A stretch of 64,000 nt of DNA from a bacterium (GTDB lineage: Bacteria > UBA10199 > 2-02-FULL-50-16 > JAJFLM01), in NCBI GenBank assembly GCA_965216315.1, contig CBDCFN010000016.1, positions 160,001 to 224,000 of the forward strand, in the 5' to 3' direction. The notes beneath the pieces are model-generated. The model saw only the letters and a program-made list of their open reading frames with translations, searched no databases and had not been told where the DNA came from. Of this stretch, positions 6,919 to 60,452 are shown piece after piece. Every line of letters begins with the position of its first letter. The stretch's first letter is position 1. A program made the position numbers and the translations under genes.

Positions 6919-6945
6919 ACAACTTCTGAGCTCCATACGCGATAG
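6919..6945 (+). promoter_or_regulatory. Sigma28-like promoter motif copy 1
   Basis: ACAAC-N14-CGCGATAG, 17 nt before ATG 6963. Confidence 0.6.
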
Positions 6946-6962
6946 GCTTCCTGGAGCAGTGT

Positions 6963-7895
6963 ATGATGATGTCTAGTGTGTTAGCGGCCCCGACCTTGTC
7001 GCTGGTGTGTCTGCCGGCCTTGCGGGCCTTCAATCCCAATCCCGAAAGTGGCACCCTGTATGCGCCGACCATGAAAGTCGATCCGGAGATGGATCTGGCC
7101 CCGAGCAAGCTCGTCACGGATGGAGTGGCCGCCGGCGATGTAGATCTGTTGGCGTTGTTGATGCTGGGTGAGGTCAGTGAAGTCGCCATTCATCTTCGAA
7201 AGCAACAGCAGAGTTTTCCTTACCCCGTGCCACCGGTATCGGCAAAGGGCACGCCCTGGTTCATCGATAGCTATCGACCGGGGAGTAGGGGGGCGTCTGG
7301 AGCCGCGTCATTCTCGACACAGACTCCCGTCCGTCGCGTTGAAATGAATCAGCAAAATGCCCACCGTACTTATCTGAGCTATAGTATCGAGTCGGCCGAG
7401 GGAGGATTTGTTCAATCCATTTATATCGATTGTTCCAGTCACGTCGTGTCGACGGATCATTATCTCGTGCGCATTCAAGCCCAGAATTTTTCCAACGCGT
7501 TACGCCTCGCGCTGTTGCTGTCTCAAGAAATTTACGCCTCGGGGCAATATGATACTGATAACGAATTGGGGACGCTTCAGTATCGTGTCAATCATCAAGG
7601 CGATTGGTTCGATCTCTTTTATAATCAAGGGCGTTTTTTGCCGCCGGATCTTCCACCCGACTTTCACGGCGAACTCAGTTTTGCCTCCGCGGCTACGGTC
7701 TTTGCGGATGCCCACCGGGATTTTCGCCAGGCCGTCGTGGCCCTCGATTTAATGCCTCTGGAGCCTCCGCGGTGGCAGCTGGAAATCGCCTTGTATCGCC
7801 CGCTGGGACGCACTCTCGGGCTGATGCCGCTGATTCATTGCCTGCGGCGGCTGCTCTGGATGCCGATTTTCGAGCGAATTTTTGCCAAATCCTGA
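6963..7895 (+). CDS. Hypothetical protein (ORFan)
   Basis: 310-aa ORF, GGAG RBS; no recognised domain. Confidence 0.65.
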   Translation: MMMSSVLAAPTLSLVCLPALRAFNPNPESGTLYAPTMKVDPEMDLAPSKLVTDGVAAGDVDLLALLMLGEVSEVAIHLRKQQQSFPYPVPPVSAKGTPWFIDSYRPGSRGASGAASFSTQTPVRRVEMNQQNAHRTYLSYSIESAEGGFVQSIYIDCSSHVVSTDHYLVRIQAQNFSNALRLALLLSQEIYASGQYDTDNELGTLQYRVNHQGDWFDLFYNQGRFLPPDLPPDFHGELSFASAATVFADAHRDFRQAVVALDLMPLEPPRWQLEIALYRPLGRTLGLMPLIHCLRRLLWMPIFERIFAKS

Positions 7896-7901
7896 TAATA
7901 C

Positions 7902-59800: not shown

Positions 59801-60354
59801 CCTTCGCCGGCTATGTCGGTGAAGATTGTAGTAAGGGTAGGTGGAAGCAAGAGATTAAGCGCAAGGATACTCAGGTCTATCGGATGATTCACAATAACCG
59901 TTTGGTCGGCGTGCTTTATCTTAAGCGTGATACACTCGACGGTAAGGTTGTGCTTAACTTGGGGATTGAGCCGCGGAGTCGTTTCCGTGTCGATCACAAG
60001 GCGTTATTAAAAGGGGTTACGGATCAATTTATCGCGATGATGGAGCAATACGATTATGACTACATCCTTATCTCAGTCAATTCACATGAACGTTCCAATC
60101 GCCCTGATATGAATAAGGCGATAGATGAGCAGTTTACCCGCCGGGTACACTTTAATCAGGCCATCAGCGGTAAGATTTTTTCGGGACATGATTTCCTCGT
60201 CGTGTGGAAGCGACCGCCCGATCTCAATAAAGGACGGCCTCCTCATATTGATGACGCTATTTCCATGAGTGCACGCACGATGCCGCTGAGTGGCGATATG
60301 CCCATAGAGGCGATTCCGCCGGCCCTGCGTCCCTCTGATGACGAGAGTGATTAG
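56881..60354 (+). CDS. Large hypothetical protein (1157 aa)
   Basis: Uninterrupted ORF; no Sec signal; C-terminal alpha/beta domain with GEDC and SNR motifs. Confidence 0.85.
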   Translation: MTLLFAQSVMGLTNAGILASGSFSISQVASQLGVQGADTAERLLGLRAEVGQLLARDEIQSALPTEQRAPLAAFAAGQEVESEVLSTPFRELLRIKNEFDPAPAADDAVQEQAVAMVRAVPRGQLGQQLFGAPVNAGSNLVQRPLQQLMANARIVTPLPDGRIDVHIPSHGSYTSQDLFDFYCLIFHQAQIFREYLSALRDQGADINRLEFYVQQLDTRLQGALRLLNNNNARGAWAYLYTADKWMRQFQQGIIDVAREVGFRIDPQRGRIQRMRNMPPPAQLFQPVADAEPVIAPQRIIDVQGPPPAAVTPEIVHDVSADVQIPRRYLIVYGSGLDHSLDFREHDRYYVYQDPSPYSQDRINIFSRRVNSQSGFYGVLYQEGEQLIFENRLGLKQVVTSGIHPGSLQVDRGSRQVRRLRQSTPSSPSISVLRRSGVWNYHEDRRSLQFAVHPIKVGIMALVEAQLRAQGPLSAEMLSLIKELYQQEESEVMRNKRGRLHQWCMAFVNEDGPPHGSGNYKGVAEKFGSEEVLALIRAMMAALPQSRFYGTWSRGMRIIKALLPRASNKAQMALVPVLVRAYLRPMELSGSDIDGEPVYAYLEEQRFGNLTSGLEKMLSGLGISGRLVGLRTIAREMQGQEEVSQLWLTMLSNVAGSLPPDALVRERERTDSAELRMFLQAYEHGFPMLAPLYNMYLADPNPQGFMIDTSRQVNYFRRGGTLYSRNVERHLAYAYAGLDNPEQLDLDKFVREIEVVDLPTPFLNESFTVRVPRVQVSHADIDKGILREAYEAVARVYTVDRLSDYLQEVLASLRQHGLRKLRQNIEAVLSRYQTGAQTSENRGDVVTSQNVVSIAGEIMQLLAEQKKLNNQSREVLANLTIGTAATDEDSAHLIATLSTYHDKVAPQQLVDILNALREFYGDSVGTVLSALQPEPRIGFITKMRKRLQQQADRIKTQSADMMAIECVPSKSQADAFAGYVGEDCSKGRWKQEIKRKDTQVYRMIHNNRLVGVLYLKRDTLDGKVVLNLGIEPRSRFRVDHKALLKGVTDQFIAMMEQYDYDYILISVNSHERSNRPDMNKAIDEQFTRRVHFNQAISGKIFSGHDFLVVWKRPPDLNKGRPPHIDDAISMSARTMPLSGDMPIEAIPPALRPSDDESD

Positions 60355-60425
60355 CTGCGGGTTGGCGAAAAATTATCCAAGTTATTCCAGCAAGTTAGCT
60401 CGCCTTCACCGGTCCTTTTTTTCAC

Positions 60426-60452
60426 ACAACAATTTTCGAGAAGTTGCGATAA
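60426..60452 (+). promoter_or_regulatory. Sigma28-like promoter motif copy 7
   Basis: ACAAC-N14-TGCGATAA upstream of the 60463/60508 ATGs. Confidence 0.7.

Follow-up and report, generated by a model that had tools for sequence, protein, structure and literature searches.

Recognition of promoters by sigma-28 factors of the FliA/WhiG type has been described for the open complex of Pseudomonas aeruginosa on the fliC promoter, where the recognised blocks are (-36)TCTAAAG(-30) and (-15)GCCGATAA(-8), and residues S224 and Q228 of the region 4.2 helix make base-specific contacts with the -35 element (PMC12784957). The corresponding contacts of the helix in Escherichia coli are reported to be weaker and to be made with phosphates (bioRxiv 10.1101/2020.01.02.893370). 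In Bdellovibrio bacteriovorus, 92 of the 140 promoters mapped for the attack phase have the form TTAAG-N16-CCGATA (Karunker et al., 2013; PMC3627812). Another dispersed two-block promoter, the hrp box, is read in Pseudomonas syringae, Erwinia and Dickeya by HrpL, a sigma factor tied to a T3SS (type III secretion system), and it serves effector genes as well as some non-effector genes (PMC3879358 and PMC2957411). The present work concerns a promoter-like motif, RCAAC-N16-CGATRR, in a bacterium of the phylum UBA10199 whose genome assembly (GCA_965216315.1) comprises 2.96 Mb in 16 contigs. It was noticed in a sequence-only reading of a stretch of 64,000 nucleotides (C16:160001-224000, where C16 is contig CBDCFN010000016.1; hereafter the window, whose positions are counted from its first letter), which took it for the mark of a dispersed regulon of orphan genes. 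The explanation that we favour, and consider reasonably probable, is that a secretion-linked paralog of sigma-28 drives a regulon of T3SS effectors from this motif, possibly with gating of the FlgM kind. The sequence-only reading did not contain the location of the sigma gene within a T3SS cluster of a genome without a flagellin or rod match, the conservation of the promoter across the phylum, the N-terminal tag on five of the seven window products, or the probably leaderless nature of two of the seven window mRNAs.

A pattern search on both strands of the window yields seven exact matches to RCAAC-N16-CGATRR. All seven are intergenic, each is oriented toward the next open reading frame (ORF), and the fixed spacing, the orientation and the distance of 6–57 nt before the start codon that had been described for them were found to be exact. 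Thirteen other sites in the window carry one mismatch, and they look like noise because all of them lie within long ORFs. As the motif was derived post hoc, it could in principle be a chance or repeat-derived pattern, for example a part of some mobile element, with no role as a promoter. However, the chance expectation for the window is 0.33 sites (standard deviation 0.53, largest value 2), and none of 100 dinucleotide-preserving shuffles reached seven. Genome-wide there are 144 exact sites, as against about 22 for other spacers (13–37 for spacers of 10–15 and 19–23, 38 for a spacer of 17 and 53 for one of 18) and four for the reversed pattern. When compared with a crude set of 2450 ORFs (the longest ORFs of at least 90 aa, chosen greedily), 109 of the 144 sites (76%) fall within -120 to +250 nt of a long-ORF start on their own strand, versus 767 of 5000 random positions (15%), and the motif is thus commoner upstream of genes than chance would have it. 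The flanks and the spacer show no conservation among the genome sites. Lastly, in a sample of 93 genomes of this phylum, all from one class and belonging to 24 families, a strict 14-base pattern, GCAACTTT-N13-CGATAA, was detected in 92 genomes, with two matches overall for the reversed control, and each of the 30 nearest relatives contains 25–100 matches to a looser pattern versus 0–14 for the control. An origin by chance or from a repeat, to which we assign next to no probability, is refuted as far as computation can refute it, and the motif appears to represent a genuine, dispersed class of promoters.

If one mismatch is allowed, 526 sites are found genome-wide and 151 of these are upstream of ORFs. 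Because control spacers give 70–89 upstream sites, about 70 of the one-mismatch sites are estimated to be true promoters; together with about 120 true exact sites this amounts to roughly 190 promoters, or about 7–8% of the genes. Spacers of 17 and 18 also show a smaller excess upstream of ORFs (20/38 and 21/53, respectively), which indicates either that some promoters accept a longer spacer or that two RCAAC boxes occur at some sites.

When the positions that the search pattern left free are included, the 144 sites give the extended consensus cGCAACTTT-N11-gCCGATAA. In the -10 region the frequencies are g (0.47), c (0.40), CGAT, A (0.73) and A (0.75), where the CGATRR core is imposed by the search pattern and only the two bases ahead of it were free; the positions following RCAAC are rich in T (0.47, 0.60 and 0.54). 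The motif matches the sigma-28 -10 box GCCGATAA, and its spacing, with a sharp optimum at a spacer of 16, is that of the sigma-28 register (-34)TAAAG(-30)...(-13)CGATAA(-8) given in PMC12784957. The -35 box TAAAG(TTT) is not matched, as the motif differs from it at -34, -33 and -30 and reads cGCAACTTT where sigma-28 promoters have TAAAGTTT. The proposal that the promoter is sigma-28-like is hence borne out in its -10 box and its spacing, with a different -35. Since the last A of the box is at -8, the +1 position should fall 8 nt past the box. At 46 of the 144 sites the start codon of an ORF of at least 60 aa lies 5–10 nt past the box (mode 7). Because of this geometry, about a third of the transcripts of this regulon are probably leaderless, beginning at the start codon itself, and those of the window sites at 9844 and 23446 would be among them. 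Such a strong leaderless bias in one regulon may matter for the coupling of translation to export.

Five genes for proteins with a Sigma70_r2 domain are present in the genome, viz. RpoD, an RpoH, two extracytoplasmic function (ECF) sigmas and one FliA_WhiG-like protein of 299 aa. A sigma-28-family gene, which the sequence-only reading had called for, is therefore found exactly once; it is located at C16:350511-351410, about 126 kb past the window end. The best NCBIfam model for its product is TIGR02479 (FliA_WhiG), with 133 bits against a curated cut-off of 189.6 bits, and the protein is at best a divergent member of the sigma-28 family. It contains Sigma70_r2 and Sigma70_r4, aligns over regions 2–4 with group 3 sigmas, whose architecture (no region 1.1) it shares, and has as its closest solved relatives a WhiG-type sigma (6pfj, E 3.6e-24) and FliA (9wsf, 6pmi). 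The recognition helix of its region 4.2 reads KSWTSRLH, in contrast to ESRVSQ(L/I)H, which is identical in the three solved relatives shown. Four of the six positions that are invariant in solved FliA/WhiG proteins are changed (E to K, R to W and Q to R among the changes), the family-typical helix (S/T)ESRVSQ(L/I)H is not matched, and the altered -35 specificity that had been suggested fits with these differences. This sigma has an ortholog in 91 of the 93 phylum genomes and in 63 of the 63 of high quality, the two misses being in genomes that are 73% and 78% complete. The sequence LSKSW(T/V)SRLH is found in 44 of 47 relatives, and the remaining three were not captured by the search pattern.

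The motif could also be read by one of the two ECF sigmas, and its -35 element is ECF-like. ECF-type promoters have the form AAC ... CGT, and the CAACTT of the motif resembles their -35 boxes, as the CG with which its -10 opens resembles their second block. Furthermore, region 4.2 of ECF sigma 1 (TVKSRLHYAR) has SRLH in common with the helix of the 299-aa sigma. However, relatives of ECF sigma 1 and ECF sigma 2 (E<=1e-15) occur in only 24 and 31 of the 93 genomes, respectively, versus 92 of 93 for the motif, and the motif-rich genomes G004, G030 and G083 have neither of them; in addition, the 8-bp -10 element gCCGATAA is the sigma-28 box (PMC12784957). The ECF sigmas were rejected as readers on this phylogenetic profile, and a role for either of them is very improbable. 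Because both the motif and the 299-aa sigma are distributed phylum-wide while the ECF sigmas are confined to 24 and 31 genomes, the sigma-28-like protein is most likely the factor that reads the motif. It would have kept the sigma-28 type of -10 recognition and would read a different -35 with a rebuilt region 4.2 helix. The promoter, with an ECF-like -35 and a sigma-28 -10, looks chimeric, and in this it would match a sigma that is itself chimeric.

Flagellin is present in 12 of the 93 genomes. Two of the flagellin-bearing genomes, G084 and G085, contain another sigma-28 paralog, encoded at a distance of about 20 kb from flagellin, and its helix is of a canonical-like form (TESRICQIH). In the upstream regions of the flagellin genes (those of G075, G070, G022, G088, G014, G038, G068 and G069 among them), xAAGxTT-N11/12-TCCGTxxA, which has a canonical -35 and a variant -10, was recognised by eye in 7 of 12, an automated scan for the canonical motif found none, and GCAAC..CGATAA is in 0 of the 12. 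The second paralog of G084 and G085 and these different flagellin promoters point to the 299-aa sigma being a separate paralog with its own promoter code, so that the phylum would possess two sigma-28 paralogs and two codes.

The gene for the 299-aa sigma lies inside a T3SS cluster, between SctJ-like and SctI-like genes. Before it are genes for an FHA/YscD-type protein, TPR proteins, SctV, the SctJ-like protein and two small proteins of 151 and 119 aa, and after it follow those for a 162-aa SctI/FliE-like protein, a FliG-like protein, SctL/FliH, the ATPase, SctO/FliJ, a SctP/FliK-like protein, a FliM-like protein, FliN/SctQ, FliO, SctR, a FliQ-like protein (recognised by eye) and SctT. SctV attains 806 bits against the hrcV cut-off of 692, which is above its FlhA score, and SctN attains 620 bits (cut-off 604.75), although FliI_clade2 is also passed (638 vs 629.8). 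SctU, whose gene is elsewhere in the genome, is borderline (357.1 bits vs 358), and for SctR and SctT these are the best models, yet the scores are under their own cut-offs. SctJ is the best model for the inner-ring gene, with 115 bits (cut-off 162), and the FHA plus Yop-YscD_cpl protein is a further inner-ring candidate. The match to FliG_C is weak (21.8 bits in the genome search, 29.3 bits with hmmscan); among 47 related loci, 43 retain the order of sigma gene, then FliG-like gene. By these scores the system appears to be intermediate in type between injectisome and flagellar, with an export apparatus and an ATPase that are both recognisable. No match to Flagellin_N, Flg_bb_rod or FlgM was detected in this genome, which is 98.3% complete. 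Two ORFs directly after sctT have both the exact promoter and a score for the tag described below, and one other exact site in the cluster lies inside a RecN-like gene. The cluster also encodes, before SctJ, a Gly/Ala/Gln-rich protein of 183 aa (L056:1385-1936) that, like the 151-aa protein (L056:3541-3996; present in 11 of 47 related loci) of similar composition, has no family match; the two may be filament or rod parts of the T3SS. The C-terminus of the 183-aa protein is needle-like by eye, but support from PDB and Pfam was not found and we do not claim it as the needle.

The products of the regulon are for the most part orphans. Of 119 scanned promoter-linked products, 83 are without a Pfam domain (six of the seven window products at E<=0.01, and 48 of 72 and 29 of 40 in two further batches at E<=1e-4), and no flagellar family was found among the 119. 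A shared N-terminal tag, uncharged and about 25 residues long, is found on about half of the products. In this tag the Met is followed by some 20–25 residues that include no D, E, K or R and many S, T, A and L, and the stretch often closes with (I/V/L)LA(S/G)(S/G). At least 15 uncharged N-terminal residues are present in 43% of 116 promoter-linked proteins versus 7.7% of the 2450 called genes. As 86 of these 116 proteins are singletons in an all-versus-all BLASTP comparison, the tag is not explained by paralogy. A strict pattern, LA[SAG][SGT], was matched by only 17 of 137 products, and it was replaced by the measure of uncharged runs and by a hidden Markov model (HMM), which was built from 57 uncharged N-termini and applied with a threshold score of 5. 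At this threshold 122 N-termini score, as compared to 11 internal control segments. The 122 genes comprise 52 with an exact promoter, 25 with a one-mismatch promoter and 45 with none, and for the other 2328 genes these numbers are 63, 144 and 2121, respectively. In an independent test, limited to genes without an exact promoter, a one-mismatch promoter was present for 25 of 70 tagged genes versus 144 of 2265 others (odds ratio 8.2, p 2e-12). Sixteen of the 45 promoter-less tagged genes have a regulon gene upstream of them on their own strand, and about 93 of the 122 are thus tied to the promoter either directly or through an operon; the variant with spacer 17 or 18 is found in none of the tagged genes that lack a promoter. 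In 33 of the 57 tagged proteins the tag starts at the Met in the leaderless position.

The domains found in tagged proteins include a Ser/Thr kinase, a macro domain, FHA, pentapeptide repeats, two ResIII helicases (one of them fused to sigma-70 region 4) and a histidine kinase with receiver, and further LamG, FGE-sulfatase, class V aminotransferase, cysteine dioxygenase, AMP-binding and acyltransferase enzymes. Among the untagged members of the regulon are a patatin phospholipase, a subtilase, LysM and TSP3-repeat proteins, an MFS transporter and DUF4423 regulators. Domains of the kinase, macro, patatin and helicase types act inside a cytoplasm, which would be in line with a role as effectors. 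The tag would then be the export signal of the T3SS in the cluster, and the regulon, switched on by the T3SS-linked sigma from its roughly 190 promoters, would be mainly an effector arsenal with accessory genes.

The promoter may have been read correctly and the tag may still be something other than a T3SS signal, either a signal for other export (e.g. by Sec and a GspD-type type II secretion system) or an internal targeting or degradation tag. The core (I/V/L)-L-A-(S/G)-(S/G) at residues 17–23 resembles, by eye, a signal-peptidase site or a lipobox-like site without Cys, the only strong secretin in the genome is of the GspD type (521 bits, with 132 for the SctC model against a cut-off of 238), and metabolic-type enzymes occur among the tagged proteins. 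However, the tag has no basic n-region, the lack of K and R being in part imposed by the selection, and its hydrophobic core is weak. The maximum of the 12-residue mean of Kyte–Doolittle hydropathy is 1.46 for the tag, 2.37 for lipoprotein-like signals and 0.80 for internal segments, and only 1 of 57 tags (2%) attains the hydrophobicity that 79% of the lipoprotein-like signals attain, which appears to be too little for a Sec signal. Moreover, helicases, kinases, the histidine kinase with receiver and a protein of 3856 aa resembling a polyketide synthase (PKS) are implausible as Sec cargo. We regard a tag unrelated to the T3SS as quite improbable.

The 3856-aa protein is encoded at C15:370001-381571 (L105). 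It contains acyltransferase, MaoC dehydratase and short-chain dehydrogenase domains and is PKS- or fatty-acid-synthase-like, and it has both the tag and a one-mismatch promoter.

A candidate for an anti-sigma partner is the small, disordered protein of 119 aa that is encoded just upstream of the sigma. Its positional counterparts in 24 related loci are 99–125 aa long, with a disordered front and a helical end, and align poorly (mean column identity 21%). A predicted complex of this protein with the sigma scores 0.68, a value that is reached by 116 of 157 solved complexes and by 2 of 215 mismatched pairs, whereas the best of three controls scores 0.00. At least 36% of the contacts are common to the runs, and the pLDDT of the partner is at least 51. 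In the predicted interface, residues 73–113 of the partner lie on residues 132–186 and 210–260 of the sigma, including the helix that would read the -35 (250–260). The 119-aa protein may hold the sigma inactive, as FlgM holds FliA, and by analogy with that pair it would restrain the sigma until the secretion machine is ready; its own export would be a pure extrapolation from FlgM. The 162-aa gene directly after the sigma gene was likewise considered for an anti-sigma and was rejected, as its family resembles inner-rod proteins of T3SSs: of its 35 members, 16 match T3SS_basalb_I (best E 3e-5) and two match FliE, and MxiI is matched with E 0.023.

A broader proposition, which we put forward only tentatively, is that throughout the phylum a flagellum-derived, secretin-less T3SS has kept the sigma-28/anti-sigma checkpoint, that the orthogonal, chimeric promoter code insulates it from the flagellar FliA, and that each genome contains more than 100 fast-evolving effectors.

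Several observations weigh against the effector regulon that we favour. The sigma is under the cut-off of its family model, as noted above, and the gene starts in the ORF set are crude. The odds ratio of 26.7 for the association of the tag with the promoter is circular, the tag HMM having been trained on promoter-linked proteins; for 29 of the 122 genes that score for the tag, no promoter and no regulon gene upstream is found, and several of these are clearly false positives, being lipoproteins or membrane proteins. The ..LASS.. core was not seen in the promoter-linked proteins of two other families of the phylum (G004 and G023); of the features described, some genes there have only the lack of charge and the leaderless geometry. 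For effectors, domains of the aminotransferase, malic-enzyme-like and cysteine-dioxygenase types are unusual. No FlgM family match was obtained in the genome, and as sigma-28/FlgM complexes have been solved, the score of the predicted complex may show likeness to them instead of binding. For the secretion machinery itself, a T3SS secretin was not found, no needle was recognised in PDB or Pfam, and no translocon turned up, although no search was aimed at one; export out of the cell by this T3SS is predicted only. Because the structural genes of the T3SS cluster have no exact motif ahead of them, the two ORFs after sctT being set apart, the link to secretion rests on the location of the sigma. 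In addition, 63 genes with an exact promoter are without the tag, including those for a lipoprotein, the subtilase, the MFS transporter and the DUF4423 regulators, and the regulon is therefore broader than T3SS substrates.

The last two observations are also what would be expected if a sigma-28 of altered specificity ran a stage programme similar to that of Bdellovibrio, with no tie to the T3SS, the location of its gene being a flagellar relic and the tag serving some other role. The attack-phase regulon of that organism is similar in size and make-up and contains many non-flagellar or uncharacterised genes (PMC3627812), and lipoproteins, a subtilase, a transporter and regulators would fit well in such a programme. 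However, a relic would not readily account for a sigma/T3SS gene order that is kept in 43 of 47 loci when flagellin is found in only 12 of 93 genomes, and a tag that is strongly tied to the promoter, not Sec-like, and present on cytoplasm-type enzymes would be left unexplained. A stage programme of this kind is rather unlikely, and we continue to prefer the T3SS-linked effector regulon.

The individual sites and products of the window may be described as follows. Promoter 1 (ACAAC-N16-CGATAG; 6919..6945, plus strand), an exact intergenic match, has an ATG 17 nt past its box with GGAG between, and is followed by an ORFan of 310 aa (6963..7895, plus strand; tag-HMM score 6.2). Promoter 2 (GCAAC-N16-CGATGA; 7902..7928, plus) begins 7 nt past the stop of that ORF and has an ATG 50 nt past the box, which opens an ORFan of 210 aa (7979..8611, plus; tag score 13.0). 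Two ORFs on the same strand come next and may be co-transcribed with it: the first (8792-9508) encodes 238 aa with RTX calcium-binding repeats (HemolysinCabind, E 3.3e-6) and lies between two regulon genes, and the second (9527-9844; 105 aa) has a stop that overlaps promoter 3. Promoter 3 (GCAAC-N16-CGATAA; 9844..9870, plus) is an exact match and probably leaderless; its ATG is 7 nt past the box, the place at which transcription is expected to begin if the fliC promoter of P. aeruginosa is taken as a model (PMC12784957). Its product is a tagged ORFan of 223 aa (9878..10549, plus; score 12.9). A scan for sigma-70-type promoters found no plus-strand promoter-like site ahead of the ORFs at 6963, 7979 and 9878. 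Promoter 4 (GCAAC-N16-CGATGA; 23446..23472, plus), also exact and probably leaderless with an ATG 6 nt past the box, precedes an ORFan of 372 aa whose N-terminus is charged and without the tag (23479..24597, plus).

Promoter 5 (GCAAC-N16-CGATGA; 54566..54592, minus strand) is intergenic and divergent from an aminotransferase gene (54682-56115), and its ATG is 57 nt past the box, with GAGGAG ahead of the ATG. It precedes a tagged helicase-domain protein of 839 aa (51989..54508, minus; ResIII, Helicase_C and DEAD; score 8.5). Three minus-strand ORFs without a Pfam domain trail the helicase gene with small gaps or none (50698-52032, 48662-50908 and 41466-48665; 444, 748 and 2399 aa), and together with it they form a possible 13-kb operon from promoter 5. 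The window helicase is without the region 4 part that is seen in another tagged regulon protein, of 1021 aa (C16:91474-94539, L113), in which a ResIII/DEAD helicase and sigma-70 region 4 are joined in an unusual fusion. Promoter 6 (ACAAC-N16-CGATAA; 56831..56857, plus), an exact match with an ATG 23 nt past the box, is followed by a tagged ORFan of 1157 aa (56881..60354, plus; score 9.6). Promoter 7 (ACAAC-N16-CGATAA; 60426..60452, plus), likewise exact, has its first ATG 10 nt past the box, and from another ATG in the same frame, at 60508, a signal typical of lipoproteins would be read. The 411-aa product (60463..61698, plus) has no tag and, by eye, contains K-rich, hydrophobic and LLSAC segments after the second Met; it is probably a Sec-exported lipoprotein that starts at 60508.

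Five of the seven products, viz. those at 6963, 7979, 9878, 51989 and 56881, thus carry the tag. The statement that every downstream unit is lineage-specific stands for most of them, since six of the seven have no Pfam domain and the two that were searched, 9878..10549 and 23479..24597, match only themselves among 5.8 billion proteins in a word-index search of near lengths only; it does not stand for the helicase-domain protein, and the product at 60463-61698 is probably an ordinary lipoprotein. An Rfam scan of the window detected no family.

Outside the window, a tandem run of eleven copies of the promoter is found at C16:2163562-2185613, where BLASTP groups five of the products into a single family of paralogs, whose N-termini are rich in Cys and which lack any Pfam domain. 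Palindrome half-sites, TTGCGAA and TTCGCAA, flank the -35 in several sites of this run; among the 144 exact sites both halves are present in five and the left half in 20. Four other regulon genes (C15:336161, 349900 and 352163; C16:1699695), of which two encode paralogs, share a conserved 5' leader of about 33 nt with a hairpin that ends in the Shine-Dalgarno sequence and may be a translational control element.

If the effector regulon is as we suggest, the promoter together with the tag provides a simple sequence rule for listing the likely secreted effectors of an uncultured phylum, and the kinase, macro, patatin and FHA domains on this list hint at the manipulation of another cell. It would also give a lead to the substrates that secretin-less T3SSs have in 'deltaproteobacterial' predators. 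A natural pair of sigma-28 paralogs, each with its own promoter code, would be at hand, in which the changes in the helix and in the DNA are both visible, and a sigma-28 with a FlgM-like partner in a non-flagellar T3SS would bear on the flagellar origin of injectisomes and of their regulation. On the broader, tentative proposition, the list would be the first catalogue of effectors for a T3SS of this type, and the system a living intermediate between the regulation of the flagellum and that of the injectisome. Among the open-access papers listed, none describes, by its title and the beginning of its abstract, a sigma-28 inside a non-flagellar T3SS cluster or this promoter.

With the sigma-28/FliA/WhiG and FlgM systems, the system described here has in common a group 3 sigma, the -10 element gCCGATAA and the -35/-10 spacing. 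The sigma gene is here among T3SS genes arranged as in the flagellar system (F/J, G, H, I, J, K, M, N, O, P, Q, R), and for the small, disordered protein encoded next to it, binding to domains 3 and 4 of the sigma is predicted, in the manner of FlgM. The differences are that the -35 is GCAACTTT in place of TAAAGTTT, that the helix is KSWTSRLH in place of ESRVSQLH, and that roughly 190 promoters of mostly orphan genes are involved here, in contrast to about 20–50 flagellar and chemotaxis genes for sigma-28. With no flagellin, rod or FlgM match in this genome, late flagellar control does not describe it. The FliA regulon of Bdellovibrio is of a similar size and is also rich in uncharacterised, surface and secreted proteins (PMC3627812). 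However, Bdellovibrio is flagellated and its promoter has a canonical-like -35, whereas the sigma here is a separate paralog. The attack-phase regulon is not known to us to be linked to a T3SS, to have a common N-terminal tag or to be biased toward leaderless mRNAs. The word 'leaderless' is absent from the text of PMC3627812. The needleless T3SS* of Myxococcus xanthus resembles the present one in being non-flagellar, in its occurrence in a former 'deltaproteobacterial' lineage, in the lack of a recognisable secretin and in its orphan effectors; the text of the paper on it contains no mention of a sigma factor, and an SctI-like rod protein is present here (PMC12075869). As with HrpL and the hrp box, a T3SS-tied sigma would here act on a dispersed two-block promoter ahead of effector and some other genes, and promoter and N-terminal composition can be used together to list candidate effectors. 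HrpL also drives the T3SS structural operons, whereas no such use of the exact motif is seen here, and it is an ECF (group 4) sigma lacking region 3, while the sigma here belongs to group 3 and is not a member of the HrpL family. In its way of working the system would thus come closest to HrpL with its hrp box, although the sigma is of a different group.

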